From: Candidatus Woesearchaeota archaeon
GTDB lineage: Archaea; Nanobdellota; Nanobdellia; Woesearchaeales; GW2011-AR4
Direction: 5' to 3'
Assembly (NCBI GenBank): GCA_016192955.1
Contig: JACPTD010000037.1
Location: 1 to 33,107, forward strand
Length of the DNA: 33,107 bases
Each line of letters starts with the position of its first letter. Positions within the stretch are counted from its first letter, which is position 1. Both the position numbers and the translations under genes were made by a program. Of this stretch, positions 157 to 19,835 are shown in pieces. The notes under the pieces were generated by a model that saw only the letters and a program-made list of their open reading frames with translations, was not told where the DNA came from and ran no database searches.

Positions 157-1062
157 ATGTTTAAAATACGCTTTATTTGCGTTATTTTTTTAGTTGTACT
201 TATAAGTGGAGCGGCTCAAGGTTTTTCGATAAAGCAAAGCCGGTTTTTTTATGCTGGGGATGGAGTTTTGGTGCTTGATCGTAAGATTCGGTTTCGGGAT
301 GTGCAAGGGAATTATCTTGAACCAGGGTTAAAGGAAATTCACCGGGCTTTTGGGGCGCCTTGGGCCCTGCCTTATGAAAGGCTTTCGCTGCGTTTCATTG
401 AAATGCTCGATTATTTGCAAGAGCAATTTAATCATGGGGCCTTCTCGATACGCTCGGGGTATCGTAGCCCCAATGCAAATCAGAGCTTGCGAAAAAAAGG
501 CAAACTGGCGGCCATGAGTAGCATGCATATTGAAGGGGCGGCGGCGGATTTATATTTGCAAGGTGCTTCTTCGCAAAAAATATTTGCCACCGTGCGAGAT
601 TGGCAATGTTGTGGGATTGGATATTACGGGTCACAGCATTTTCATCTTGATACGGGCCCGGCGCGCTGGTGGGATCAAAACACCTCGAAAACAGAATCCC
701 AAGCGCCACAAGAAAATGAAAAAATTATCATTCAAACCACCCAAGATATTTATTTTTTGGGTGAAAAAATTGATCTGCAATTTATGCGGGTCACTAATTA
801 TCCGATTGATGTTAATACAACTGTAACGGTAGAGTCAAAAAATAAATCTCTTAAACTTGATTTGCGAAGTGATATGACAAACTTGAATGCTTGTATGACG
901 TTGAAGAATCGATCGGAGGGAAGGCAATTATCTATTCATTTGCCTGAAAAAAAATTGGAAGCTGGGCGATATCAAATCAAAATTACTTTTTGTAATAAGC
1001 GTGATTATGTTCTATATATTTATCTTTATTTCTTTGGTACTCTAATTTTCTATATTCAATGA
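157..1062 (+). CDS. Secreted peptidase M15A / DUF882 (YcbK/MepK-like) zinc-peptidase-like protein with an extra beta-rich C-terminal region
   Basis: Track ORF 142..1062 starts at TTG. The first ATG at 157 gives a signal-like N-terminus, MFKIRFICVIFLVVLISGAAQG. The core SGYRSPNANQ...SSMHIEGAAADLY...GSQHFHLDTGPARWW has the H..D...H ligand pattern typical of DUF882/M15A. The last ~26 codons (985-1062) run antisense through the convergent homing-endonuclease gene, so the real C-terminus is uncertain. Confidence 0.65.
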   Translation: MFKIRFICVIFLVVLISGAAQGFSIKQSRFFYAGDGVLVLDRKIRFRDVQGNYLEPGLKEIHRAFGAPWALPYERLSLRFIEMLDYLQEQFNHGAFSIRSGYRSPNANQSLRKKGKLAAMSSMHIEGAAADLYLQGASSQKIFATVRDWQCCGIGYYGSQHFHLDTGPARWWDQNTSKTESQAPQENEKIIIQTTQDIYFLGEKIDLQFMRVTNYPIDVNTTVTVESKNKSLKLDLRSDMTNLNACMTLKNRSEGRQLSIHLPEKKLEAGRYQIKITFCNKRDYVLYIYLYFFGTLIFYIQ

Positions 1063-1750
1063 CTTTGTCGTTATGCAGTTTAATTTTTGAATAATTTTTT
1101 CCATTCAAATGACCTAACTTATAATACAAACTTGGAACTACGAATGATTTTATCATTTTTAAGAACTTATCAGCCTGTATTTTCGGTAGTATTATTGTAT
1201 AACAGAATGAATTATTTTTGGTCCTTTTATGTATTTGTGAATCAATTCCGAATCTCTTTTTCAACCAATTTTTAATAATGATGTGCTCTGAGTAATTAAA
1301 AGAATCAGTCCCAAAACCACATCTACCATCCCCATAATGGTAATATCCATCATCCATATACCAAATAGCTAAACCTAATACATTAAATTCATTTAGGAAC
1401 TTTTTGGTTATGTTTTTCCTTCTATTTTTGTATAAAACTTTGTGGTAATCTGTTAGTATAGGATTTACTTTCGACCAAATCAATATAGAATCATAAGTTT
1501 TGCATGTTCTTTTATCATAGGTAGAATATTGATAAAACTTAGTATTAAAAATATTTAGGAATTGGTCTTTCCAAATAAGGTATTCTTTTTGTTTTAACCC
1601 ATGAAGTTCATAGTAATATGCATTTTTACCACCTTTGCATATTTTTAAACTTCCGTCCCCAAGCAAGCTACCTAAAAGCACTTGCTTTACATCCTCATCT
1701 ATTTTAAATTCTTCTAATTCCATTTTTTGATTGTTTATATTTGAAATCAT
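983..1750 (-). CDS. Free-standing LAGLIDADG (double-motif) homing endonuclease
   Basis: Two dodecapeptide motifs, LLGSLLGDGSL and LAIWYMDDGYY, lie about 100 aa apart. ATG start at 1750. AT-rich relative to neighbours. Not embedded in an intein or a recognisable intron. Confidence 0.8.
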   Translation of the reverse strand: MISNINNQKMELEEFKIDEDVKQVLLGSLLGDGSLKICKGGKNAYYYELHGLKQKEYLIWKDQFLNIFNTKFYQYSTYDKRTCKTYDSILIWSKVNPILTDYHKVLYKNRRKNITKKFLNEFNVLGLAIWYMDDGYYHYGDGRCGFGTDSFNYSEHIIIKNWLKKRFGIDSQIHKRTKNNSFCYTIILPKIQADKFLKMIKSFVVPSLYYKLGHLNGKNYSKIKLHNDKVIEYRKLEYQRNKDKYIEHNHAYYKK

Positions 1751-2853: not shown

Positions 2854-3282
2854 TCATATACTTACCAAAACAGCCCCGCCCACGATCATCAAAGTGCCTA
2901 TTATGATCCTAATCATTTGCGACATGTTTGGAACTTCTTTCAATAAAATTATCCCTAATATCACTGCAATGATGGTGTTGGCATTGTAAATCGGGGCAAG
3001 CTGCGCCACATTGCCTTTGTTTGCTATTGCTACTGCGATTGCAAGAAAGCCGATTGCCCAAATCACTCCCGCAATTAAAGCAAGCAAAGTTGACTTCAAC
3101 TCAAACTGCAAATTCGGCTTTGCAAAATAATAAAACAAAAATACAGTAGAAATTCCGACTCCGAAGATAAGGCTTGCATAAGCCGGATTTAAATTTCCTT
3201 TCTGTATGGCAATTTTAAAAATTACGGTGTTTATTCCAAAACAAATCGCCGCAACAATCCCATAAAAAACCCAGCTTTCCAT
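2854..3282 (-). CDS. Small EamA/DMT-superfamily membrane transporter (single EamA domain)
   Basis: 142 aa, almost entirely hydrophobic, with 4-5 predicted helices and EamA-like spacing (..AICFGINTVIFK..; ..ANTIIAVILGIILLKE..). The start codon lies 1 nt after the transketolase C-subunit stop, so co-transcription is likely. Confidence 0.55.
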   Translation of the reverse strand: MESWVFYGIVAAICFGINTVIFKIAIQKGNLNPAYASLIFGVGISTVFLFYYFAKPNLQFELKSTLLALIAGVIWAIGFLAIAVAIANKGNVAQLAPIYNANTIIAVILGIILLKEVPNMSQMIRIIIGTLMIVGGAVLVSI

Positions 3283-3283
3283 T

Positions 3284-4237
3284 TTATCTCTTTTTATTCA
3301 CAAACTTCATAACTTCTTCCGCAATTGACTCTGAATCCATCCCGTACTTCTTATACAATTCATCAGGCTTTCCTGACTCAGCATATGTGTCTTTCAACCC
3401 AATCCTTTTCATAATGCACGGATAGTTCTCGCCAAGCACCTCAGCAACTGCACCACCTAATCCTCCAACTATGTTGTGATCCTCTGCCGTAACAACACAA
3501 CCGGTTTTTTTTGCCAAATCTATGATTAAATCTGCATCAATAGGCTTTATCGTATGCATGTTGACAACATAAACTTTTATGTCTTCACTTTCAAGAATTT
3601 CAGCTGCCTTCAAAGATTCATGCGCCATTGTGCCAGTCGCGAAAATAACAGCGTCTTTGCCCTGTTTCATAATCTCGCCTTTGCCAATTTCAAAATTGTA
3701 ATCATTACTATGAATCACTGGGAGGGGATTGCGATGCATCCTCATGTAGCTTGGCCCTTTGTAGCCAGCCAATGCAAAAACCATCTTTTCAGCTTCAACA
3801 AAATCACACGGCTGCAAAACAATCATATTCGGCAAAGCCCTGTAAATTGCAATGTCCTCAATTGCCTGTGCGCTTTTCCCGTCTTCACCGGTTGCAATTC
3901 CAGCATGGCTCCCAGCAATCTTAACATTTAACTTGTTCCTTGAAACAACATTTCTCACAAACTCATAAGCCCTTTCGCTGAAAATCGCAAATGTGCTTGC
4001 ATATGGTATTTTGCCGGAAAAAGCCAATCCAGCAGCTGCGCCAATCAGGTTCTGCTCCGCAATTCCCATCGAAAAAAACCTTTCCGGAAACTGCTTTGCG
4101 AAATATTCGCTTCTTGTGCTGTCGCTTAAATCAGCGTCTAGGGCAACAACATTTGGGTTTATTTTGCCCAATTCCAGCAAGGCTTTTCCATAGCCATCTC
4201 GAGTTGCTAATTTTTGTTGTTCCATTTTATTTGGCAT
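3284..4237 (-). CDS. Transketolase, C-terminal (pyrimidine-binding) subunit
   Basis: ATRDGYGKALLELG...VALDADLSDST...FSMGIAEQNLIGAAAGLA...FATGTMAHESL...HTIKPID is the canonical split-transketolase C-subunit pattern. Its ATG overlaps the upstream subunit's stop (TAATG). Confidence 0.9.
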   Translation of the reverse strand: MPNKMEQQKLATRDGYGKALLELGKINPNVVALDADLSDSTRSEYFAKQFPERFFSMGIAEQNLIGAAAGLAFSGKIPYASTFAIFSERAYEFVRNVVSRNKLNVKIAGSHAGIATGEDGKSAQAIEDIAIYRALPNMIVLQPCDFVEAEKMVFALAGYKGPSYMRMHRNPLPVIHSNDYNFEIGKGEIMKQGKDAVIFATGTMAHESLKAAEILESEDIKVYVVNMHTIKPIDADLIIDLAKKTGCVVTAEDHNIVGGLGGAVAEVLGENYPCIMKRIGLKDTYAESGKPDELYKKYGMDSESIAEEVMKFVNKKR

Positions 4238-5082
4238 TATTTAAACTTCTTAACATCAATCTTCTCAATCTCTTCCATTGCTTTTTTATACTCTTCATCA
4301 TTCGGCGCTTTTCCATGAAATTTGTAATTCAATTCCATGAATGAAACCCCTTTGCCCTTGATAGTGTTGGAAACAATGATGGTCGGCTTTTTATTCTTAG
4401 TTTTTGAGGCTTTATCAAGAGCCTTTACAATTTGTGACATATCATGCCCGTTAATGTCAATGACATTCCATCCAAAAGCTTTCCACTTCAATGAAACATT
4501 TCCAATGTCCATAATTTCCTTTGTCTTGCCAGTCTGCTGGACTTGGTTTTTGTCAAGCACTGCAATTAAATTGTCCAGCTTATAGAACGCTGCTGCCATA
4601 GAGGCTTCCCAGACAGCGCCTTCTTGCGCTTCTCCATCGCCGATCATTGCATAAACATTGCAGTTCCTTTTGTCAAGCCTGCAAGCTAGTGCAATTCCAA
4701 GCGCAAAGCAGATTCCTTGGCCAAGAGCGCCGCCAGCAAAATCTACTCCCAGCGTGCTTAGCTCAGGATGCCCTTGCAGCATTCTGCCCATTTTTCTATA
4801 TCCATTTAATTCAGATTTTTGGAAATATCCCTTGTCAGCCAAAACAGCGTATAGTGCAGGGCTGCAGTGGCCTTTGCTCAGGATAAACCTGTCCCTGTCC
4901 TGCCACAGAGGATTTTTTGGATCAATCCTTAATTTGTGGTAATAAAGCCCAACAAGCACGTCTATTGCGCTTAAAGAGCCGCCAGGATGGCCTGACTGGG
5001 CATTGTAAATCATAGAAATAATCTCTTTTCTAAGCTCTTTTGCCTTCTGCTTTAAGCCTAAAACCAATTCCCTTTTCGCCAT
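4237..5082 (-). CDS. Transketolase, N-terminal (thiamine-diphosphate-binding) subunit
   Basis: SGHPGGSLS...LSKGHCSPALYAVL...GALGQG...IGDGEAQEGAVWEA is the TPP-binding motif set of a split transketolase. Confidence 0.9.
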   Translation of the reverse strand: MAKRELVLGLKQKAKELRKEIISMIYNAQSGHPGGSLSAIDVLVGLYYHKLRIDPKNPLWQDRDRFILSKGHCSPALYAVLADKGYFQKSELNGYRKMGRMLQGHPELSTLGVDFAGGALGQGICFALGIALACRLDKRNCNVYAMIGDGEAQEGAVWEASMAAAFYKLDNLIAVLDKNQVQQTGKTKEIMDIGNVSLKWKAFGWNVIDINGHDMSQIVKALDKASKTKNKKPTIIVSNTIKGKGVSFMELNYKFHGKAPNDEEYKKAMEEIEKIDVKKFK

Positions 5083-7484: not shown

Positions 7485-8984
7485 ATGGAACAGGAGCTTG
7501 TTAAAAAAAAACGAGAAATTATTGATTTTTTTCTGAAGAACGGGGTTTTAATAAGCACAAACCTATTAAATGAAATCAACAATTATGGGAACATCTCCAA
7601 AGTATTTGAACTATTGAAATCAAAAACAATTGATGACCCGCTTGTCATGGATTTGGATTTAAACAAGCTAATAAACGAGGCAAATAGGCAAAACACAGAA
7701 ACAACAAAAGAAGTTCAACACAGAAACCAAGTCAAAGTGACATTTTCTTATAAAGAGGAGCCAAAAAAAAGAGACCCTAGAGACTTTGTTGATTATTTCA
7801 CCAACAGGTACAAGGCACTGGAAAAAATCCTGAAGCAGCATCAGGAGCTTAAAGACACGATCTCAATAAATAAGCTGACAAGCAAAAAAGATAAAGAAAG
7901 CACATCAATAATCGGCATAGTCAGCAGCAAGCAGACAACTAAGAACGGAAATTTGCTTCTTGTGATTGAGGACCCAACAGGGCAAAGGAGAGTCATCATA
8001 AACAAAAACAAATTATCATTATTCAACGAAGCCAAGGACATCGTTTTGGACGAGATTATCGGCGTCACTGGAGTTAATGTGGACACAATCACATTCGCTA
8101 ACAACATAATCTGGCCGGACACGCCTACAAACAGGGAATTAAAGAAGGCTGAAAATGAATCATACGCTTTGTTCTTGTCAGACCTTCATGTTGGATCATC
8201 AAAATTCCTCCCAGATGATTTTGAAAAGTTTCTTAGATGGGTAAATGGAGAGATGGGAAATGAGCAGCAAAGGCATATAGCCAACAATATTGAATATATT
8301 TTTATCGCGGGGGACTTGGTGGATGGATGCGGCATATACCCTGAGCAGGACAAAGAGCTTGCAACAAAAGACATATACGAGCAATACAGGGAATGCGCTG
8401 AATTGTTAAAACAGATACCGCAGCACATACCATTAATCATTTGCCCAGGCAACCATGACGCCTTGAGGATTTCAGAGCCGCAGCCGCCATTGTCGAAAAA
8501 TTTTGCCAGCGCCATGTATGAATTGAACAATGCAATAATGGTTTCAAACCCGTCTTTGATCAACATAAACTCATCAGACAACTTCCCGGGATTTGATGTG
8601 CTGATGTATCATGGATATTCCTTTGACTATTTTGTTGCAGAAGTAGATTCGCTGAGAAACCAGGGAGGGTATGACAGGGCAGACCTTATCATGAAATTCT
8701 TATTGAAGAGAAGGCATCTTGCGCCAACCCATTTGTCAACGCTATACCTTCCAGACACAAAAAAAGACCCGTTGGTTATTGAAAAAGTTCCTGACTTCTT
8801 TTTGAGCGGGCACATACACAAAACAGCGACAACTAACTACAGGAATACAACTTTAATATGCGGAAGCTGCTGGCAAAGCAAAACCATGTTCCAGGAGAAA
8901 GTTGGCCACAATCCCGAGCCAAGCAGGGTCCCAATCGTAAATCTGCAGACAAGAGATATTAAAATACTGAAGTTTGGGCACTAA
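7485..8984 (+). CDS. polB: DNA polymerase II (PolD) small subunit DP1
   Basis: OB-fold region plus calcineurin-type phosphoesterase motifs FLSDLHVGS, IAGDLVDG, CPGNHD and GHIH. It starts 1 nt after the orc1 stop. Confidence 0.93.
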   Translation: MEQELVKKKREIIDFFLKNGVLISTNLLNEINNYGNISKVFELLKSKTIDDPLVMDLDLNKLINEANRQNTETTKEVQHRNQVKVTFSYKEEPKKRDPRDFVDYFTNRYKALEKILKQHQELKDTISINKLTSKKDKESTSIIGIVSSKQTTKNGNLLLVIEDPTGQRRVIINKNKLSLFNEAKDIVLDEIIGVTGVNVDTITFANNIIWPDTPTNRELKKAENESYALFLSDLHVGSSKFLPDDFEKFLRWVNGEMGNEQQRHIANNIEYIFIAGDLVDGCGIYPEQDKELATKDIYEQYRECAELLKQIPQHIPLIICPGNHDALRISEPQPPLSKNFASAMYELNNAIMVSNPSLININSSDNFPGFDVLMYHGYSFDYFVAEVDSLRNQGGYDRADLIMKFLLKRRHLAPTHLSTLYLPDTKKDPLVIEKVPDFFLSGHIHKTATTNYRNTTLICGSCWQSKTMFQEKVGHNPEPSRVPIVNLQTRDIKILKFGH

Positions 8985-8985
8985 A

Positions 8986-10191
8986 ATGCTAACGGAAAAA
9001 TACACAAGAGAGATAATTGAAAAGGTGGAGAATTCTTACGAGATTGCAAACAAGGCAAGGTCAAAGGGATACGACCCTGAAGAAACAGTCAATATCCCGC
9101 TTGCTAAAAACATGGCAGAGCGCGTCGAAGGATTAGTGAGCGTGGCAGCACCGCAAATCATAAACAAAGGCATACCTAACAGGATCAAAGAGCTCGAAAA
9201 TGCCTATGGCAAGTTAGACTGGAGGGTCGCGCTTACAATTTCACTGGAAACCACACAGCAGAAATTCTGCACTTTTGAAACGCAAAAAGAAGCCATAGAA
9301 ACGGGCATAAGGGTAGGATTGGCTTACCTGACGCTCGGCATTGTGGCGTCTCCATTAGAGGGTTTTGTCGGACTGAAGCTTAAAAAAAGAAATGATGGGA
9401 AAGAGTACTTCTCTCTCATGTATTCCGGGCCCATAAGGAGCGCTGGCGGAACTGCCGGGGCTGTAAGTGTCATCATAGCCGATTACATAAGGAAGAGCAC
9501 AGGCTATTATACATACGATCCGTCTGAAAAAGAGATAAGAAGAATGGTTACTGAGCTTTATGATTACCACGAACGGATAACTAACTTGCAGTATCTTCCA
9601 AATGAAAAAGAAATAAGGTTTCTTGTGGCCAATTTGCCGGTCCAGATTGATGGAGACGCATCAGAGGAAATAGAAGTGTCTAACTACAAGGACATTGAAA
9701 GGATAGAAACAAATAAGATAAGGAGCGGGCCATGCCTTGTTATAGGTGAATGCATTGCGCAGAAATCAGCAAAAATATGGCCTCAGATTAAAAAGTGGGG
9801 AAATGATTTTGGGCTTGGGCACTGGAACTTTTTGCAGGAATTTGTGCAATTGCAAAAAGAAACAAAAGCAAAAGACAAATTCAAAATAGTAGGTCCGAGA
9901 AAAGCAGGATATCTAGGATCTTTAGAAAGAGGAGCTTATAATCGAACAACATCAGAGAGCACAAGTGCAATGAACTGTTTTGACACACCCACTAGCTGTT
10001 GGAGGATTCAGGCTAAGGTATGGGAGATGCAGGACATCTGGTTATTCAGCATCTGCAATACACCCTGCAACAATGATAATCTTAAACAAATACATCGCTA
10101 TAGGCACTCAGTTAAAAGTCGAAAGGCCAGGCAAAGCAACAGCAATCACAATTTGCGATTCTATAGAAGGTCCAATAGTAAAACTAAATGA
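8986..10191 (+). CDS. polC: DNA polymerase II (PolD) large subunit DP2, N-terminal fragment (frame 1); recognisable homology ends near 9975
   Basis: The ATG at 8986 lies 1 nt after the DP1 stop (the track's start at 8974 is a TTG). The sequence is DP2 N-terminal-like up to ~KIVGPRKAGYLGSL. The tail from ~9980 to 10191 is out-of-frame reading of the next fragment. Confidence 0.8.
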   Translation: MLTEKYTREIIEKVENSYEIANKARSKGYDPEETVNIPLAKNMAERVEGLVSVAAPQIINKGIPNRIKELENAYGKLDWRVALTISLETTQQKFCTFETQKEAIETGIRVGLAYLTLGIVASPLEGFVGLKLKKRNDGKEYFSLMYSGPIRSAGGTAGAVSVIIADYIRKSTGYYTYDPSEKEIRRMVTELYDYHERITNLQYLPNEKEIRFLVANLPVQIDGDASEEIEVSNYKDIERIETNKIRSGPCLVIGECIAQKSAKIWPQIKKWGNDFGLGHWNFLQEFVQLQKETKAKDKFKIVGPRKAGYLGSLERGAYNRTTSESTSAMNCFDTPTSCWRIQAKVWEMQDIWLFSICNTPCNNDNLKQIHRYRHSVKSRKARQSNSNHNLRFYRRSNSKTK

Positions 10192-12523
10192 CAGCAGTGT
10201 ACTAAAGGTTGACAGCGAGCAAAAAGCAAAAGAAGTCTCAAGCTCCATCAAAGAAATCTTATTTTTAGGAGATATACTGATAAGCTATGGGGATTTTTTC
10301 AACAGAGCGCACACACTTGCTCCAGCCGGATATTGCGAGGAGTGGTGGCTGCTTGAGATCGAAAAAGCTGCGATAAAGTTATTTGGATCGCTTGATTACC
10401 TCAAGCTTTCAGAGCTGACAGGCACAGAGCAAAAACTACTGGAAAACATCTTTAAAGACGGCTTTTTTGAGAAGCCAGATGCAAGAACAGCCATAGCATT
10501 GAGCAAATGCCTTGGAGTTCCACTGCATCCTTACTACACTTATCACTGGAAAACAATATCAAAAGATGAATTTTTTGAACTGCTTAAGTGGCTAAGAGAT
10601 GCCGGCATAGAGTCAGATGGCGCAAGCATTAGCAAGATCATACTCCAAAAGAATGAAGCTGCAAAAAGAGCGCTTGAGCTGATTGGAGCTCCTCACCTTT
10701 TTGTCAATAATGAGTTCACAATAATAGAAAAGCAGGATGCAGAGATAATATGCTCATTATTCAAGCCCGATACAGACTTCTATGAGCAATGCAAAAATTC
10801 TGAAATCGAGGATGTGTTGGAGCTGATAAACTCAATTTCCGGAATAAATCTCAGAGACAAATCAGGGATATTCATCGGTGCGAGGATGGGCAGGCCTGAA
10901 AAGGCGAAGATAAGAAAGCTGGAAGGAGACCCTCATACAATATTTCCTGTTGGAAAGGAAGGGGGCAAGCTCAGGTCGTTCCAAAGCGCCTTTGAAACAG
11001 GAAGCATAGAAGCAGAGTTTCCAACATTTTTCTGCGGCAAGTGCAAAAAAGAGACAATTTTAAGCGTCTGCGAGCAATGTAGCACAAAAACAACAAGAAC
11101 AGGAAACTGCAGCGTATGCGGAATTGTTGAAGATGGGAAATGCAGGCACGGCGCATTTTCCACCTATAAGAATCAGCGCATAGACATTAATTACTATTTC
11201 AGGAGCATACTCCACAAGCTTGATATGCATCAATACCCTGATTTAATCAAGGGAGTAAGGGGAACATCAAATAAAAGCCATATTGTCGAGCATTTTGCAA
11301 AAGGAATCCTGAGGGCCAAGCACGACATATCCGTTAACAGGGACGGCACAACAAGGTATGATATGACACAGCTTCCTATAACCCATTTCAAGCCAAAAGA
11401 AATAGGCACATCAGTGGAAGAGTTAAGAAAACTCGGCTACGACAGCGACATTCATGGCAAAGAATTGACAGACCCGGAGCAAGTCTTGGAATTAAAATCA
11501 CAAGACATCATACTCCCAAAATGTGAAGATGCGCCTGAAGAAGGGGCAGATAAGATACTCTATAATGTAAGCTTGTTTGTTGACGAGCTTCTTGTTTCAT
11601 TATACAGCCTAAAGAAATTTTATAACCTGAAATCCGGAAGAGAGCTGGTCGGGCATTTGGTGGTGGCTTTGGCGCCGCACACGTCAGCAGGCATTGTCGG
11701 CAGGATAATAGGATTTTCCAAAACCCAGGCATTTTATGCCCATCCATTGTTTCACGCAGCTACAAGGCGGGATTGTGACGGCGATGAGGCTTCAGTCACA
11801 CTGCTAATGGACGTGTTGCTGAACTTTTCCAGGCAATTTCTTCCTAATTCAAGGGGAGCAACCCAGGATGCTCCTTTGGTGTTGACATCCAAACTTGTCC
11901 CTACGGAAGTTGATGACATGGTTTTTGATTTGGACGTTGCAAGTAATTACCCGATTGAGTTTTATGAGGCAACGCAGGAATTTGAGCTGCCTTGGAATGT
12001 CAAAATCACAAGGTTTGCAAATATATTAACCTCTGGAGGTGAGTATTCGCCAATCAATTACACTCATCCGGTCAGCAACATAAACTCAGGAGTCAAATGC
12101 TCCTCCTACAAGACAATACCCTCCATGGAGGACAAATTAAAGGGGCAGATGGAGCTTGCCGACAAGATAAGGGCAGTTGATGCAGCAGATGTCGCAAGGC
12201 TTGTCATAGAAAAGCACCTTTTAAGGGACATAAAAGGCAACTTAAGAAGATTTTCAACCCAGGAATTCAGGTGCAGCAGATGCACTGAAAAGTACAGAAG
12301 GCCGCCTTTGGCAGGCAAGTGCCTCGCTTGCGGCAGCAGGCTTATTTTCACGGTCACAGAAGGCTCGATAATAAAGTATCTAGAGCCGGCAATATCGCTT
12401 TCAGAAAAATACAACCTTCCGCCTTATCTCAGGCAGGTATTGGCACTGACAAAAGACAGGGTTGAAGGAGTCTTTGGAAAAGATAAGGATAAGCAGGAAG
12501 GGTTAGGTAGGTGGTTTGGGTAA
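9980..12523 (+). CDS. polC: DNA polymerase II (PolD) large subunit DP2, catalytic C-terminal fragment (frame 2)
   Basis: It begins THPLAVGGFRLRYGRCRTSGYSASAIHPATM..GTQLKVERPGKA, the conserved DP2 core. It also has Zn clusters CGKCKKE..CEQC and CSVCG, and a C-terminal CSRCTEKYRRPPLAGKCLACG. There is no independent ATG or SD, so it continues the upstream fragment through a +1 shift. Confidence 0.9.
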   Translation: MTHPLAVGGFRLRYGRCRTSGYSASAIHPATMIILNKYIAIGTQLKVERPGKATAITICDSIEGPIVKLNDSSVLKVDSEQKAKEVSSSIKEILFLGDILISYGDFFNRAHTLAPAGYCEEWWLLEIEKAAIKLFGSLDYLKLSELTGTEQKLLENIFKDGFFEKPDARTAIALSKCLGVPLHPYYTYHWKTISKDEFFELLKWLRDAGIESDGASISKIILQKNEAAKRALELIGAPHLFVNNEFTIIEKQDAEIICSLFKPDTDFYEQCKNSEIEDVLELINSISGINLRDKSGIFIGARMGRPEKAKIRKLEGDPHTIFPVGKEGGKLRSFQSAFETGSIEAEFPTFFCGKCKKETILSVCEQCSTKTTRTGNCSVCGIVEDGKCRHGAFSTYKNQRIDINYYFRSILHKLDMHQYPDLIKGVRGTSNKSHIVEHFAKGILRAKHDISVNRDGTTRYDMTQLPITHFKPKEIGTSVEELRKLGYDSDIHGKELTDPEQVLELKSQDIILPKCEDAPEEGADKILYNVSLFVDELLVSLYSLKKFYNLKSGRELVGHLVVALAPHTSAGIVGRIIGFSKTQAFYAHPLFHAATRRDCDGDEASVTLLMDVLLNFSRQFLPNSRGATQDAPLVLTSKLVPTEVDDMVFDLDVASNYPIEFYEATQEFELPWNVKITRFANILTSGGEYSPINYTHPVSNINSGVKCSSYKTIPSMEDKLKGQMELADKIRAVDAADVARLVIEKHLLRDIKGNLRRFSTQEFRCSRCTEKYRRPPLAGKCLACGSRLIFTVTEGSIIKYLEPAISLSEKYNLPPYLRQVLALTKDRVEGVFGKDKDKQEGLGRWFG

Positions 12524-12529
12524 TTTTTT
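12524..12529 (+). terminator. T6 tract immediately after the polC stop (archaeal oligo-T terminator candidate)
   Basis: The sequence reads taa|tttttt g. Confidence 0.3.
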
Positions 12530-12600
12530 GTAATTAACCTATACGACATCTTTAGTTTTTCTGTCAGTTACGAAGTTCTGGAAAATTTTGTTCCGAAAAG

Positions 12601-12662
12601 TAAAAAATCGGCGTATAAATGACGGAGTCCCATATCAGTAACAAATTTAAGGGGTTTCGGGC
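12601..12662 (+). repeat. Left terminal inverted repeat (62 bp)
   Basis: Sequence: taaaaaatcggcgtataaatgacggagtcccatatcagtaacaaatttaaggggtttcgggc. Confidence 0.95.
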
Positions 12663-12702
12663 GATATATTTTTAAAGTTTGATGTAGTTCCATTAATTGA
12701 AG

Positions 12703-13311
12703 ATGCAACTGCAAGAAACAATTCAAATTCCAGAAAGAGTGGAACAGGCAATTGGATACGAAGCTTGGACAGCTTTAAGTTGGGCATTACACAATCAATG
12801 GGTTCAGGATTATAAGTGGTTATTTTCTGAAATGACTAAAAGTGATGTCGGTACACCTCGTACTGTTCAAACTATGCTTCATCTTAGTGATTTAATGAGA
12901 GCAACAGGCCAATTTTATACTTTTAGTGAGGAAGCAGATAGACCTAAAAATCAAAAAATAGGAACCCGTGGTTTACTAATGTTCACTCACAGAGTCAAAC
13001 CACATCAAGCTCAGGAATTCTACAAACTTATGGTTGAAGGATACTTATTAGGAACAGATTTTGTAAGTCCTTTATGGGTTATGAAACCAAATGGAAGAGG
13101 GAAATTACAGGATTTAGAACAGACGGGACTTGTTCAAGATGCTCATGGTTTGAATCAATTGGAAGGAGAATTAAGACGATATTGGGCAAGAAAGAACGGA
13201 ATAATTCAACCGCAAGACGCTGTTTTGACTAGAAGAGTAATTGATGATTTTGTGCAAACTTATAAGTTAAATGGACTTTCTGATAGATTGGCAGAGAAAT
13301 TAAACTTGTGA
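12703..13311 (+). CDS. Hypothetical 202-aa Trp-rich protein encoded inside the TIR cassette
   Basis: The track ORF starts at TTG 12697; the first ATG is at 12703. A TATA-like atatatttttaaag lies at 12664-12677. The stop codon is 3 nt before the right repeat. I see no DDE, HUH, Ser/Tyr-recombinase or LAGLIDADG motif. Confidence 0.6.
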   Translation: MQLQETIQIPERVEQAIGYEAWTALSWALHNQWVQDYKWLFSEMTKSDVGTPRTVQTMLHLSDLMRATGQFYTFSEEADRPKNQKIGTRGLLMFTHRVKPHQAQEFYKLMVEGYLLGTDFVSPLWVMKPNGRGKLQDLEQTGLVQDAHGLNQLEGELRRYWARKNGIIQPQDAVLTRRVIDDFVQTYKLNGLSDRLAEKLNL

Positions 13312-13314
13312 TTA

Positions 13315-13376
13315 GCCCGAAACCCCTTAAATTTGTTACTGATATGGGACTCCGTCATTTATACGCCGATTTTTTA
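13315..13376 (-). repeat. Right terminal inverted repeat (62 bp)
   Basis: Exact reverse complement of 12601-12662. Confidence 0.95.
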
Positions 13377-13433
13377 TTGAATATAATCATTGTCAAACAG
13401 GTTAAACGGAAACCCAAGAAAAGAATCAAATCT

Positions 13434-13844
13434 TTATATCTTCGCCTTGACTATGTTCTTTGCGCCGCAGGCTGTGCACTTCATGTAGCTTAAGTCATCA
13501 TCTTTCTCTATCTTTGTGTCTGGCTTGCCGCATTCAAAGCAGAGCACAAACTCGTTTGCGTACTGCCTTACTTTCTCATTTATCCTGGAAGCGGGGACTT
13601 TTGTGCCGAGTATCAAGGCGCCGCTTTTCTTTATCTCGCCTGGAGTGGCAAGCTCCTTCAAGACATATTTGAGCAAATGATCAGAATCCCTTCTTAACAT
13701 TGAGGCTATCTGGAGAAAGTTTGTTATTATCGTCCTGTTGCCCTGTATATGGCCCAGAACTTTAGGTATCTCAAACCTTTCCTTGAGGAAAACAGCCTCT
13801 GGAAGGCTCTTCCTGACATCTTCAAGCATTTTCTTGTATTCCAC
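13434..13844 (-). CDS. eif2b: Translation initiation factor aIF-2 beta subunit
   Basis: eIF2-beta/eIF5-type fold with the C-terminal zinc ribbon CFECGKPDT...CTACGA. It has a GTG start; the alternative ATG is 5 codons in. Confidence 0.85.
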   Translation of the reverse strand: MEYKKMLEDVRKSLPEAVFLKERFEIPKVLGHIQGNRTIITNFLQIASMLRRDSDHLLKYVLKELATPGEIKKSGALILGTKVPASRINEKVRQYANEFVLCFECGKPDTKIEKDDDLSYMKCTACGAKNIVKAKI

Positions 13845-15547: not shown

Positions 15548-16138
15548 TTATGGGATATTCATTATTTTTGTGATTTTCTCTACATCAATCTCTTTTTTTG
15601 GGAGATTTTTATAATCTTTACTTTCTTTAATTTCATCAAAGATTACTTCTTCCCTTATTTTTTGAGCTTCTCTAGACTCTTTTGCTGATACGGTTCTTAA
15701 TTTAATCGGATTAACTATCTCAAAATCGTCTACAATGACTACTTGATATTCTGCTACATAATTTTCAATCCCCTTGCGGACTACAAGAATTTTCTTGAAT
15801 TTTTTAAATTGGATACAGGTATTATGGGTGTTGTGGATATTATATTTTGTTGCTAAATTAGTTGGTATTAAACAATTAATCACTAAATTTGTTTTTCTTA
15901 ATGGAAGATCAAAGAGTAAAAATAGAGAGTACCCTGAATTAATAGATTCTATAATCTCTTTTGTATGTGCTCGAGTATGTGGATTTAAGAAACCAACCAC
16001 CTCCAACTCGTATAAACTACCATATAAATCCTTTTTAGACTCTGCTATATCAACAAGTCTTTTAAAATTATTTTTTTGAACACTTTCGAAACTAGCCAAA
16101 GGTCTTTTTAAATACTCAGAAAATTCTTTTAATTCCAT
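15548..16138 (-). CDS. Hypothetical protein (low-GC orphan lying between mcm and the RPA32-like gene)
   Basis: 196-aa ORF with an ATG start 17 nt downstream of the mcm stop on the same strand. No recognisable motif. Clearly more AT-rich than its neighbours. Confidence 0.45.
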   Translation of the reverse strand: MELKEFSEYLKRPLASFESVQKNNFKRLVDIAESKKDLYGSLYELEVVGFLNPHTRAHTKEIIESINSGYSLFLLFDLPLRKTNLVINCLIPTNLATKYNIHNTHNTCIQFKKFKKILVVRKGIENYVAEYQVVIVDDFEIVNPIKLRTVSAKESREAQKIREEVIFDEIKESKDYKNLPKKEIDVEKITKIMNIP

Positions 16139-16155
16139 GATCTTAAAATACTAAC

Positions 16156-19100
16156 TTATATCCTTGACACAAATCCGCGTCTTGGTTCAAATATATCACC
16201 TGAGCGCTTCAATCTTTCCAAGGCCTCTTCAACATTGTCCTCGTCCAGTCCGCGGTTTTTCGCTTCTGCAACAACATCCTCTATCGGAATTGTCTTGCCA
16301 AGCTTTGATTCAAGCTCTGTTATTATGTCTTTCAAAACCAATATGTGGCTTCTTTGAGAAGCGCCAACACCAGTCGCTATCCTGTCTATGTCTATCTTAC
16401 CTGTTTCTTTGTCAAACCCGACCTGCATTAAGCAGTAATCAAGCAATTCTATGGCCTTTTTTGCATCCTTTCTTGTGACTCTGTCGTCAAGCCTGGCCCT
16501 TGCCGATGCCTCGCTTAGCCTTACCAGAGCTTCCAGCTGCCTTGCGGATATTGGTATTGTCCTTATACTTCCTTCGCCGCCTCCGCTTTTCCTCATTCTT
16601 AAATAAAATTCCTTGATTTCTTCCAAAGCGCCGTCAGTCAGCTTTGGGCTTACTTTCTGCCTTGCATAGGCAATATACTTTCTCAAAATATCTGTTGATA
16701 TTTCGGGTTCTTGGACATCCGGGCTTTGGTGAAGCGTCAGGATGTGCTTTGCCATTTTCTCATCTCTCGCCTCTTCCGGCAGGTCCTTGATTGGGAATAT
16801 AAGATCAAACCTATTGATTAAAGTTGGAGGCAAGTCAATCTGGTCTGCAATTATTCCATACGGATCAAACCTTCCAAATTTCGGGTTGGCCGCCGCCAAT
16901 ACTGTTGTTCTTGCTATCAAAGTTGCCTGGATGTTTGCCTTGCTTATGCTTACTGTGTTATGCAAAACCAAACCCTCGCTAATAAAAGTTCTTGTTGGTT
17001 CAACAGTCACATCATAAACCCATTTTACATTATCATTATTTATTTTCTCAACTTTTTTGACATAAACAAACCTTATATCAGAATAAATCAATTTTAAAAT
17101 ACCACTCATTTTAGCGCGAGCGTTGCTTATTTTTTCTTTCCCGACTTTTTTAACAAGACCCAACAAATGTAAATACCTTTCAGATGATGCTCTCTTTTCA
17201 ATGTTATATACAGTGCCAGCAGCCACGCCTAAACTTTTAGCAAGAATGCTTACTTCAATATTCAGCATTCTCCTAATCTTTCTTGAATCGCCAGAGTTGA
17301 TTAGCCCAAGGCACCTATCTATCTTCTCTTCAATATTTCTTAAATAGTTAATAACAATTTGTTTATGGGCATTGAAGCCTCTTTTTATATTGCTGTAGAA
17401 ATAACCATCGCTTAATCTAAAACTTTTGAGCAGAGAATTTACATCCATTAAAACCCCTCTTGGCAGGACATCCCTTTCATTTTTCCTGCCCTTGCTCAAC
17501 TCGTAGAACTTAGCCAATTTAGGCAACCTTTTATCGTCACTTTCAACAACCCATTCAATGAAAAATTTGAAACTTTCAGTGCCAGTGACGGTAACTTTAT
17601 AATAAGCTTTATCATTTCTCCTTTCCATGTCTATTTTGCTGAGAGTGTCATTCTGAAGCAATAAATCTTGGAAACCTTTCGCTAATTCAAAAGAAGAAGT
17701 TGAATAACCAAACCTTGTGCTATCAACAAAACCATCACCCTTGAAGGCCGCTTTTAAAAATTCCAATTGCAACTCTTTGTCAGCGCACCTTAAAACATTG
17801 TCAACATACTTATTTCTGGCGCCATTAACACTTCCATTGAAATTGGAAAGCATATAGTTGTAAAACGGGACAGAGCAAAGCCTTACAGTTGTTAGGTCTT
17901 TTTTTGCCCTTAATCTTCTATGCGCAAGCTGGACATTTGTATTAATCGTGGAATTGAAAGTCCTTCTAAATAAGGAGGATACATCATCTAATATCAAATG
18001 ATCTGTATTTGACACCCCGACTTCAGCGTATCTGTTTTTTTGGCTATGATAAGCATGACCTTCTGTCGTTATATAGCCAAGAAGCCTTGCAAAGTCGTTA
18101 TTTAGGTGACGCGGGAAGTTAATATTTTTATTGTTGAAATGAGTAAGTTCTGCGTCACTAAGCGTTATCTGCTCATTTTTAGTAGGCAGTTTTCTTGGGG
18201 CAGGCGCCAATAAACCAGTTTTTACACTCTCTGCAGGCATTTCTTGAATTCTTCCATCATAAAAAACAAATACTGGGTGCTCCGGAGTTACTGTTATTGA
18301 TCTTCCATTCGAATAGGTAATTTTAATAAAATTTTCTGGAGCTTTATGCCTGCTTACCATTGCTGCCTTTATCGGGAAAATTTTTTCGAAGTCGGTCGTT
18401 AAGAGCTCAACACCATCTACCTTTAATATCTCGCAGTCTTTTCCTAAGATAAGAGTATCTCTATTGCTCTCTATTAACTCATCCACAAAGTCTCCAATTT
18501 TGAAAACACTTCCATCTGCAAGCATTATATCTGTACTAGGGTGATAACTTTGATTTTCCAGTGCCTCATGCATTGCAGCCCTGTCCTCAGAGCTCATCTT
18601 GTCAAGCTCGTCAACGCAAACAAGGCCGTCGCTGCTTAAAACCATGGCGCCTGCCTCCAAAGCCCATCCCCTCAAGAATTCGTCCCTTACGACAGCAGCT
18701 GTGATGCCTGCAGCACTCACACCCTTTCCGCTCACATACCTTCCCTTAGGGGCGATCTGGGTGATTCTCTTAAGCAAAGCAGATTTTCCTGATCCAGGAT
18801 CTCCACAAAGCAAAATATGCATATCTCCCCTGCTTACTATCTTGTCCATTCTTACCTTTCTTACACCACCCATTAACTGAAGCAGCAGCGCTTCCTTTAT
18901 CTTTTCATAGCCATAGATTGAAGGCGCCATGGAATTCACAAGCTTTTCATATCCCTTTGGGTCGTTGGCTATCTCCAAAATTTCCTTTTCTTCCTCTTCT
19001 GTTATGCTCACCTCATAAAAAGTGTCTTCAGTCGGCTTGATGTAATTAGCTTCAATCATCAAATCAAACCTTGTGGATTTTGCGCCGCTTCTGGAGATTA

Positions 19101-19770
19101 CTGGGACTTCTTTCACAATACCGACAACTTCAACTTTGCTTCCAGGAGATGTTCTTTTCTCACTTAGCGGGCTTACCAAATCATCAGTCAACAAAACATT
19201 AATGCGCTTTGGCTGCTCACCCCCCTCTAGATTTTCAGATGCCTCTTCAAGCACAATTCCCTGGGCATCAACCAAATCCTTGTCAAGCATCACAAATTTT
19301 CCCTTTCTGCCGCAGCCGCATCTTGTCGGCTCTTTGAAAGTGCCTTCCAATTGCAGGACATTCATTATGTTGCCGCACATCGGGCACTCAAATCGCGCAG
19401 AGGTGACCTGAGGCCTGACATCGGATTTCTGCCTTATCAGCCCTTCAACAAAAAGAAGCCTGTTTATGTGCTTGCTTCTTATATCCCTTATCACAATATG
19501 CTGTGTCTGCGGGAGATTGCAAAACCTAATCCTGAAATTTGCCAAGCCATCAACATCAAACTGCTCAATGGCTTTCTCAATAGCCTTTATGGTTTCCTCA
19601 GGCGAATCCAGAAGCTCTGTGGCCAAATCAGGATCGTACTTTGAAAGCTCTGAGAAGTCTATAAGCAGAAATTTACTGCCTTTCCTTGCGTTTTCCAGCA
19701 AAGAATTATAGTAATTGCTGTCTATGAAATCCTGAAACCTCTTTATCTGCTCTATTACGCTAGTTTCCAT
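16156..19770 (-). CDS. mcm: MCM replicative helicase precursor containing one large intein
   Basis: Zn finger CPMCG..CGCG, Walker A GDPGSGKS, Walker B VCVDELDKM, NRFDLIF, and a C-terminal winged helix. HEALENQ and TVSISKANIQATL are separated by 531 aa. The ATG at 19770 is preceded by gaggg 5 nt upstream; the track's start at 19809 is a TTG. Confidence 0.93.
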   Translation of the reverse strand: METSVIEQIKRFQDFIDSNYYNSLLENARKGSKFLLIDFSELSKYDPDLATELLDSPEETIKAIEKAIEQFDVDGLANFRIRFCNLPQTQHIVIRDIRSKHINRLLFVEGLIRQKSDVRPQVTSARFECPMCGNIMNVLQLEGTFKEPTRCGCGRKGKFVMLDKDLVDAQGIVLEEASENLEGGEQPKRINVLLTDDLVSPLSEKRTSPGSKVEVVGIVKEVPVISRSGAKSTRFDLMIEANYIKPTEDTFYEVSITEEEEKEILEIANDPKGYEKLVNSMAPSIYGYEKIKEALLLQLMGGVRKVRMDKIVSRGDMHILLCGDPGSGKSALLKRITQIAPKGRYVSGKGVSAAGITAAVVRDEFLRGWALEAGAMVLSSDGLVCVDELDKMSSEDRAAMHEALENQSYHPSTDIMLADGSVFKIGDFVDELIESNRDTLILGKDCEILKVDGVELLTTDFEKIFPIKAAMVSRHKAPENFIKITYSNGRSITVTPEHPVFVFYDGRIQEMPAESVKTGLLAPAPRKLPTKNEQITLSDAELTHFNNKNINFPRHLNNDFARLLGYITTEGHAYHSQKNRYAEVGVSNTDHLILDDVSSLFRRTFNSTINTNVQLAHRRLRAKKDLTTVRLCSVPFYNYMLSNFNGSVNGARNKYVDNVLRCADKELQLEFLKAAFKGDGFVDSTRFGYSTSSFELAKGFQDLLLQNDTLSKIDMERRNDKAYYKVTVTGTESFKFFIEWVVESDDKRLPKLAKFYELSKGRKNERDVLPRGVLMDVNSLLKSFRLSDGYFYSNIKRGFNAHKQIVINYLRNIEEKIDRCLGLINSGDSRKIRRMLNIEVSILAKSLGVAAGTVYNIEKRASSERYLHLLGLVKKVGKEKISNARAKMSGILKLIYSDIRFVYVKKVEKINNDNVKWVYDVTVEPTRTFISEGLVLHNTVSISKANIQATLIARTTVLAAANPKFGRFDPYGIIADQIDLPPTLINRFDLIFPIKDLPEEARDEKMAKHILTLHQSPDVQEPEISTDILRKYIAYARQKVSPKLTDGALEEIKEFYLRMRKSGGGEGSIRTIPISARQLEALVRLSEASARARLDDRVTRKDAKKAIELLDYCLMQVGFDKETGKIDIDRIATGVGASQRSHILVLKDIITELESKLGKTIPIEDVVAEAKNRGLDEDNVEEALERLKRSGDIFEPRRGFVSRI
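16957..18549 (-). mobile_element. Intein (531 aa) with a LAGLIDADG homing-endonuclease domain, inserted in the MCM ATPase core
   Basis: It starts with Ser (SYHPSTDIMLADGS), ends with VLHN, and the +1 extein residue is Thr. Block B is TVTPEHPV. DOD motifs are ARLLGYITTEGHA and LEFLKAAFKGDGFV. Removing it restores the MCM consensus HEALENQ-TVSISKA. Confidence 0.88.
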
Positions 19771-19835
19771 AATACCCTCTTGTTTTCTATGCTTAAATAG
19801 TTTGCCCAAAGATGTCCAGTGGCAAATACCAAAAA

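Follow-up and report, generated by a model that had tools for sequence, protein, structure and literature searches.

A 776-bp inverted-repeat-delimited unit in the PolD-aIF2β gap of a Woesearchaeales archaeon is a candidate mobile gene cassette

The window analyzed here is the 33,107-nucleotide (nt) contig JACPTD010000037.1 (positions 1 to 33,107, forward strand; GenBank assembly GCA_016192955.1) of a Candidatus Woesearchaeota archaeon of the order Woesearchaeales. Between the convergent genes of the PolD large subunit DP2 and of aIF2-beta (aIF2β), it carries a 776-bp segment (12601-13376) that is bounded by a perfect inverted repeat of 62 nt and holds a single open reading frame (ORF) of 202 amino acids (aa). 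We interpret this segment, with a probability of about 0.58, as a putative discrete and self-contained mobile gene cassette of Woesearchaeales-type DPANN archaea, with no recognizable transposase. The interpretation is carried by the gap itself, which is empty or differently filled in related genomes; by a homologous unit in an independent assembly (locus L054, from Logan SRR22388050) that lies in another context and has ends matching to the nucleotide; and by short end blocks that differ between lineages and stay complementary within each of them (locus L016, with L017, L018, and L025, and locus L037). An initial annotation of the window, made from the sequence alone, had proposed a discrete inserted unit delimited by the repeat, and these comparisons uphold it.

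Structure of the cassette

The two arms of the repeat are reverse complementary at 62/62 positions, and the boundary of the repeat is abrupt (12600 is a G and 13377 a T). The 62-mer matched the window at these two places only, with up to 3 mismatches permitted, and none of 100 shuffles gave a match; the next-longest inverted repeat in the 33 kb is 40 nt long at 70% identity. The sharply ended repeat beyond chance that had been described initially was therefore confirmed, as was the layout of the 652-nt interior: a TATA-like tract, an ATG at 12703, and a TGA stop codon at 13309-13311 that precedes the right arm by 3 nt. No hairpin was found inside an arm (folding z score of the left arm, +1.2). 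The cassette has a GC content of 0.362, versus 0.435 to 0.445 for the flanking genes. Its parts and the adjoining intergenic stretches are as follows.

12601-13376, plus strand: whole cassette, delimited by the inverted repeat; 776 bp, one gene; the limits of the similarity to L054 (992-1708) match
12601-12662, no strand: left arm of the repeat; 62 nt
12601-12612, no strand: left outer block, TAAAAAATCGGC; identical at 12/12 positions at both ends of L054 (992-1003 and 1697-1708); similar to GAGAAAACGGC at both ends of L037
12649-12662, no strand: left inner block, AAGGGGTTTCGGGC; adjoins the promoter box; 14/14 in L054; covariation between arms
12663-12677, plus strand: box resembling a B recognition element (BRE) and TATA box, GATATATTTTTAAAG; about 26 nt 5′ of the ATG; putative promoter
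12703-13311, plus strand: ORF; 202 aa and stop; uncharacterized family restricted to DPANN archaea
13315-13376, no strand: right arm of the repeat; inner block first, outer block last; collinear with the 61-nt right arm of L054
13315-13328, no strand: right inner block, GCCCGAAACCCCTT; 3 nt past the stop
13365-13376, no strand: right outer block, GCCGATTTTTTA; terminates in a T6 run
12524-12600, no strand: intergenic, PolD stop to cassette, host side or target; no likeness to the L054 flanks or to the gaps of relatives
13377-13433, no strand: intergenic, cassette to aIF2β stop; the first 14 nt or so (reverse complement, GATTATATTCAA) weakly resemble the outer-block flank in L054 and L037

As a search pattern, the two-part end would read TAAAAAATCGGC, N10-40, RGGGGTTTCGGGC. 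The inner block is fused to the promoter box, and the combined motif TTTYGGGCGATAnnTTTTTAAAG stands in conserved form 5′ of the gene at four loci (the window, L054, L016, and L037) and is absent from all other DNA examined. The promoter motif has a single perfect match within the window; it is not a promoter type in general use in this genome. In many insertion sequence (IS) elements, the transposase is autoregulated at the left end, and contact between an inner block and a promoter is reminiscent of this. A T6 run reads outward at each outer end; the one in the right arm lies at 13370-13375. T-runs are archaeal terminator signals, and these two would stop transcripts leaving the unit and so insulate the cassette. 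Movement of the cassette would proceed by recombination at the end blocks, which would act as cis sites.

Insertion into the PolD-aIF2β gap

The cassette lies in a replication and translation gene cluster, where the initial annotation had placed it. Its upstream neighbor is PolD DP2 (PF24844/PF24846; plus strand, stop at 12521-12523), and convergent with it is aIF2β downstream (PF01873; minus strand, stop at 13434-13436). Three loci, L042, L043, and L044, whose aIF2β is 88 to 90% identical to that of the window, keep the order TBP-MCM-OB-fold-SpoIIM-aIF2β-[gap]-PolD DP2-DP1. The gap is empty in L043 (GCA_030697845.1), where it measures 27 nt, and is occupied by an unrelated 207-aa ORF in L042 (5441-6064) and by an unrelated 144-aa membrane ORF in L044 (4929-5363). 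Other filled gaps were found in L045 (3475-4083), L046 (3527-5141), and L050 (1711-2319). Conservation of the segment at the same locus in all relatives was accordingly not observed.

In strains that share one identical aIF2β sequence (P0125, 86% identical to that of the window), the ORFans in the gap vary: 202 aa, 306 plus 239 aa, or 49 plus 122 aa. None of these is related to the window ORF, and none has comparable flanking repeats. Moreover, the GC content at third codon positions (GC3) is 0.238 in the cassette ORF versus 0.449 in PolD, 0.562 in aIF2β, 0.498 in SpoIIM, and 0.429 in the OB-fold gene; since it is far below that of its neighbors, the cassette gene is compositionally foreign. 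Comparison of gene order shows that insertion evidently brought the cassette into the convergent PolD-aIF2β gap, a spot that the same comparison reveals to be hypervariable in this lineage. No Rfam match or tRNA that could have served as a target was found in the window, and an exact aIF2β look-up found no contigs of the same species on record. The gap ORF of L042 was seen to have a Cys-rich N terminus and, by eye, a D...E.K-like motif, with no Pfam match.

A matching unit in another context

In L054 the gene lies between a 299-aa ORF and XPG/FEN-1, and its protein is 66% identical to that of the window. The left part of this unit consists of TAAAAAATCGGC (992-1003), a 10-nt spacer, AAGGGGTTTCGGGC (1014-1027), and the promoter box GATAGGTTTTTAAAG. 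To the right, the ORF, its stop codon, and 3 nt are followed by a 61-nt arm (1648-1708) made of GCCCGAAACCCCTT, 35 nt, and GCCGATTTTTTA. Global alignment gave 70 to 80% nucleotide identity across the cassette. On the right this identity drops abruptly at 13376 in the window and 1708 in L054, and on the left the two loci have nothing in common beyond TAAAAAATCGGC. Whole-arm similarity to other loci exceeded that of shuffles in L054 only.

The two genes are separated by a synonymous divergence (dS) of 0.49, with a ratio of nonsynonymous to synonymous divergence (dN/dS) of 0.43, and agree at 70% of third codon positions. By our count, identity in the 36-nt middle of the long arm is about 67%, which is roughly the neutral level, while the outer block is identical at 12/12 positions and the inner block at 14/14. 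This indicates that the constrained parts are the blocks and not the whole 62 nt, and the comparison of the two units shows that the end blocks are evidently under selection.

End blocks in more distant loci

Inner-block variants, each with a complementary partner past the stop codon, occur in L016 (AAAAAGTTTCGGGC) and L037 (GATTTTGGGC). The L016, L017, L018, and L025 loci (41% aa identity) have AAAAAGTTTCGGGC and then GATATGTTTTTAAAG 5′ of the gene, and GCCCGAAACTTTTT 12 nt past the stop. L037 (39% aa identity) has GAGAAAACGGC, 18 nt, and GATTTTGGGC 5′ of the promoter box; 8 nt past its stop, GCCCAAAATC, 15 nt, and GCCGTTTTCTC repeat the two-block layout seen in L054. The 12-mer TTTYGGGCGATA occurs in the fetched loci solely 5′ of the family gene. 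Elsewhere, GCCCRAAAY is only about as frequent as chance predicts, and in no case does an inverted pair of it surround a family gene.

A shuffle test confined to the promoter-proximal and stop-proximal zones (an unrestricted version was also run) was significant for 4 of 26 distinct loci, namely, the window, L054, L016, and L037 (P ≤ 0.003), and the remaining P values look uniform. The arm pairs of these four lineages differ and yet stay complementary within each lineage: 6/16 arm positions are altered on both sides with complementarity kept, a score reached by 1 of 500 shuffles. The region of the promoter and inner block is near-identical between the window and L016 despite a protein identity of 41%. 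Since protein identity between L016 and L037 is as low as 32%, conservation of the noncoding ends and promoter exceeds that of the protein. Two homologues with about 40% identity thus keep the inner-block repeat and the promoter with compensating changes in the arms; judged by this covariation, the cassette ends are functional.

Long flanking repeats as a feature of the whole family were rejected, because scores were at the null level in 40 other loci (L001-L041). Three of the loci deserve separate description. L001, from sample SRR22387808, encodes a 64% identical homologue and has no flanking repeat. Its 5′ DNA (4910-4945) keeps the arm fragments TATCAGTAA...GGGATTTCG, as might be left of a left end that has decayed, in a match that is not significant alone. 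In L019 (61% identical), an 11-nt direct repeat, ATAGCCAAAAA, stands before the start (2987-2997) and past the stop (3553-3563), and the gene appears frameshifted in an A-run near its start (region 3009-3040). L024, like L023 and L004, has a GC-rich 11-nt inverted repeat, TTCCGCAACCA/TGGTTGCGGAA, at −119 relative to the start codon and +53 relative to the stop codon (0/200 shuffles). This repeat was rejected as a second unit boundary, given that the similarity with L021 stops right after the stop codon.

Probable homogenization of the arms

The initial annotation took the long perfect repeat as the native end of the element, a view that the relatives contradict. Their arms are unequal, 36 and 61 nt in L054 and 39 and 36 nt in L037, and share only the 12-nt outer and 14-nt inner blocks. 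In the window, the 36-nt middle shows 0 differences between the arms, where, by our estimate from dS, arms evolving independently of each other after the divergence from L054 should differ at about a dozen positions. Because this middle is neutral in the comparison with L054 and yet undiverged between the window arms, the perfect 62-mer is probably the product of a recent, lineage-specific homogenization of two unequal arms, by gene conversion or template switch. Exchange between inverted arms would occasionally flip the interior as well.

Possible traces of such a flip were sought beside the outer block. In the window and L037, a weak motif, TTAxxxTCAA, is found there 3′ of the gene; in L054, it is found 5′ of the gene. 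A match to the L054 flank that is better, and that sits 62 nt 5′ of the left arm of L037, contradicts this signal. Together with TTAAWTGGTTGTTATGCTC, the motif makes up the short similarities outside the blocks at 13377-13390 (reverse complement) of the window, at 978-991 of L054, and at 960-973 (reverse complement) and 229-248 of L037. They might reflect a target preference, a longer asymmetric end, or inversion, and are weak and mutually inconsistent, so that the flank motifs were rejected as proof of inversion or of target preference. The four assemblies of the L016 locus have a single common orientation.

The 202-aa protein

Forty-three homologues with 34 to 68% identity were collected, and the named ones come from Candidatus Woesearchaeota. 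An exhaustive profile search of 1.84 billion representatives gave 106 proteins at E ≤ 1e-3, nearly all of them stand-alone and 150 to 220 aa long. The alignment (A1) has 11 invariant residues, among them Y114, D119, S122, D146, and R159, and the strong motifs WTALSWAL..GWVQDYKW, EGYLLGTDFVS, and DEHGxNQLEGELRRYW. The protein had been called Trp-rich; with 6 W in 202 residues it is only moderately so. Its net charge, counted on the sequence, is about 0. The neighborhoods of the family gene all differ (EamA transporter, DNA ligase/S6e, ASCH, PGK/hydrogenase, VWA proteins, and XPG), and the gene is always alone.

The AlphaFold2 model is mostly helical with a small hairpin and is confident (predicted local distance difference test [pLDDT], 91.8; predicted template modeling score [pTM], 0.89). 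A hidden nuclease or recombinase fold, raised as a possibility at the outset, did not emerge from it: Foldseek returned nothing below an E value of 2 in the PDB and nothing below 0.3 in BFVD. There was no convincing Pfam family match among the 39 members scanned and no match in NCBIfam, PADLOC, or PDB sequence searches, and the sole PHROGs match was a PHROG of unknown function (E, 0.024). Known nuclease motifs (LAGLIDADG, HNH, GIY-YIG, and PD-(D/E)xK) were not found in the protein. The family and fold searches therefore agree with the first reading that it bears no known recombinase signature. No relatives were found in IMG/VR or in phage or plasmid collections, and a virus or plasmid origin was rejected on this ground. 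The literature and libraries searched contain no description of this family or of such an element. The family profile also weakly matches two giant ankyrin-repeat STAND/NACHT proteins (E values of 1e-8 and 2e-5) via residues 16 to 93 (12748-12981). Within the family, WTALSWALHNGWVQDYKWL reads ankyrin-repeat-like, and no member reaches Pfam Ank; this lead was treated as repeat-like sequence resemblance, not homology.

Weighing the explanations

Several observations weigh against a mobile cassette. Extra copies and empty sites had been pointed to initially as informative; an empty site exists in the 27-nt gap of L043, but scans of the window, of about 350 kb of related loci, and of IMG/VR, made with 11-mers, with an nhmmer model of the arm, and as exact searches of IMG/VR, yielded no further copy of the arms or blocks. 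Six IMG/VR matches to a 17-mer were discarded as unrelated coding DNA occurring at about the chance rate. As the initial annotation had stated, no target-site duplication is visible, with no direct repeat in the flanks of the window, L054, or L037. What it overlooked is a palindromic TA inside the repeat: in the window and L054, though not in L037, the outermost 2 nt at either end of the repeat are TA, and a TA duplication could hide there. Both boundaries are set to the nucleotide by one locus pair only, the window and L054. The family gene is present once per contig or metagenome-assembled genome (MAG), the protein is intact and a flanking repeat is lacking at 22 of the 26 family loci that could be tested, and no transposase or integrase domain was found in window ORFs of at least 110 aa. 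The single copies and the intact, conserved ORF at loci without a repeat also weaken the original suggestion that the ORF is a new transposase.

Within a mobile cassette, the 202-aa gene may tentatively be regarded as cargo mobilized in trans, which we slightly prefer over an unlikely role of the protein as an end-binding recombinase; we lean toward cargo because the protein has no known recombinase fold and a nearly neutral charge, and because its ORF stays intact without repeats and occurs once per MAG. The opposite view is that of an autonomous IS-like element, in which the protein would bind the inner blocks, thereby also control the promoter of its own gene, and cleave at the outer blocks. 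The anatomy is indeed classical, with a left inverted repeat abutting the promoter, one ORF as the sole gene of the unit, and a right inverted repeat 3 nt past the stop, all within 776 bp. The end blocks and protein motifs are both highly conserved, the ends co-vary with lineage, no other recombinase lies nearby, and the invariant Y114, D119, S122, D146, and R159 could be catalytic. We nevertheless consider such an element improbable: the confident model matches no RNase-H/DDE, HUH, serine or tyrosine recombinase, or nuclease fold, none of 39 members has a family match, the net charge near 0 is unlike that of DNA-binding transposases, and the ORF with its invariant residues is kept in the 22 repeat-less loci, unlike in decaying IS copies, at one copy per genome. 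It is likewise doubtful that the protein represents a new class of recombinase or transposase, with a mostly helical new fold and the invariant Y, S, D, D, and R. Such a protein would recognize the two-part ends (outer, TAAAAAATCGGC; inner, AAGGGGTTTCGGGC) and repress its own promoter via the inner block; the 0.7- to 0.8-kb element would move among DPANN genomes, and the repeat-less homologues would be domesticated copies.

The ends could alternatively be expression signals of an accessory gene, with an upstream factor-binding site and mirrored outward oligo-T terminators; the gene would have reached the gap by ordinary horizontal transfer with illegitimate or flank-homology recombination, and the 62-nt identity would stem from a template switch at a short palindromic pair. 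The fusion of the inner block to a conserved BRE/TATA box, the outward T6 runs at both outer ends, and the T-runs directly after the right inner block in L016 and L037 are consistent with this, as is the lack of a repeat at most homologues. Moreover, unrelated repeat-less ORFans occupy the gap in other strains, which means that the site accepts DNA by other routes. It leaves unexplained, however, why the similarity between the window and L054 ends at identical nucleotides at both ends in two contexts, and why a mirrored promoter-side site lies 3 to 12 nt past the stop in four lineages with compensating changes, and we hold it to be less probable still than the IS-like element. There is a slim chance that the segment is invertible, arm recombination flipping promoter and gene as in a Hin/hix-type switch or a homologous flip-flop. 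Two identical inverted 62-nt arms are a recombination substrate, their zero divergence implies ongoing exchange, and the weak TTAxxxTCAA flank motif changes sides between the window or L037 and L054. With the promoter inside the segment and the 3′ ends of convergent genes on either side, however, a flip would switch nothing; the window yielded no serine or tyrosine invertase, the flank evidence is contradicted by the other L037 match, and inversion alone accounts neither for the insertion nor for the differing contexts. An assembly or amplification artifact, a fold-back or chimeric join, might be suspected in a contig from a metagenome assembly whose arms are as identical as a duplication artifact would make them. 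It is very unlikely, and the least probable of these readings, because independent assemblies (L054, L016-L018/L025, and L037) have homologous inverted blocks at matching positions relative to promoter and stop; the interior is unique, both outer junctions run into the expected syntenic genes, and in a fold-back the aIF2β flank would not resume after 62 nt.

Other features of the window

The PolD DP2 gene (8974-12523, plus strand) is split by a frameshift at 9855-9977: residues 23 to 291 of a relative align in frame 1 (9049-9855), and residues 321 to 1169 align in frame 2 (9977-12520). A sequencing error, pseudogenization, or programmed frameshifting could be the cause. MCM (16156-19809, minus strand) measures 1,217 aa versus 673 aa in relatives owing to an insertion of about 528 aa (16963-18546), which is presumably an intein; the PolD proteins of L042 and L053 contain an intein with LAGLIDADG. 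Between the OB-fold gene and MCM, which are adjacent in L042 and L044, lies a 196-aa ORF (15548-16138, minus strand; GC, 0.284; GC3, 0.218; no Pfam match) that seems to be a second insertion of foreign DNA into this cluster. A free-standing LAGLIDADG_2 endonuclease ORF (983-1750, minus strand; E, 1e-29) overlaps the end of an M15-peptidase-like ORF (142-1062). The stretch from 29100 to 31850, about 2.7 kb, contains only ORFs of at most 103 aa; it showed neither tandem repeats nor notable direct repeats, and Rfam gave no match there.

Significance and comparison with known systems

DPANN archaea have very small genomes and few recognized mobile elements, and the routes by which they acquire genes are poorly understood. 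The putative cassette, with its own promoter and terminators and lodged in a replication and translation cluster, would offer a concrete and testable vehicle for gene flow in this group. Its ends are better conserved than the accompanying protein, which points to an unrecognized system of protein-DNA recognition: a new recombinase class if the encoded protein is the recognition factor, or an unrecognized trans-acting mobilization system in these archaea if it is not. The family is a defined target for functional study, with about 100 representatives, a fold predicted confidently to be novel, and a relatively high dN/dS (0.43 for the window and L054).

Among mobile units, homing endonuclease genes and other selfish ORFs resemble the cassette in their setting, being lodged between conserved replication and translation genes where gap contents vary by strain; the region also holds the MCM intein, the free-standing LAGLIDADG ORF, and another low-GC ORFan. 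The cassette, however, has no nuclease motif or fold, and homing endonuclease genes are not bounded by conserved inverted repeats. Integron cassettes are likewise single-gene mobile units, in whose arrays core sequences complementary to each other enclose a gene, and GTTTCGGGC/GCCCGAAAC loosely recalls GTTRRRY/RYYYAAC. This core is, however, off the consensus, there is no self-folding attC downstream, the gene has its own promoter, and the window has no integrase or array. Invertible segments such as the Salmonella H segment (hin/hix), Gin/Cin, and invertons share the size of about 1 kb, inverted repeats with one gene of about 200 aa, and identical arms that imply recombination between them, but the cassette has no serine or tyrosine invertase, has an internal promoter, and is found in different contexts.

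Elements derived from MITEs (MITE, miniature inverted-repeat transposable element), Pack-type elements, and MITE-flanked integron mobilization units also have inverted ends without a recognizable transposase inside and a passenger gene with its own expression signals, for which the mobilizing enzyme would act in trans. Unlike a MITE, the cassette encodes a conserved 202-aa protein, and neither a multicopy family of ends nor a partner autonomous element was found; unlike in opportunistic capture, its ends are tied to one gene family across proteins that are 32 to 40% identical. Small IS elements, of which IS1 (768 bp, with terminal inverted repeats [TIRs]) is an example, differ from the cassette in several respects. 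The cassette protein has no DDE, DEDD, HUH, serine, or tyrosine signature or fold, its ends are of two parts (12-nt outer and 14-nt inner) with a spacer of 10 to 36 nt, and its arms in the window are 62 nt long and perfect. There is no visible target duplication, one copy is present per genome, and the ORF is intact where the ends are gone. What they share is a length of about 0.8 kb, inverted ends, a single ORF that fills the space, a promoter abutting the left end and a stop codon abutting the right, as well as occurrence at different genomic sites with insertion polymorphism versus related genomes. In this comparison the candidate cassette would work most like a small TIR element.

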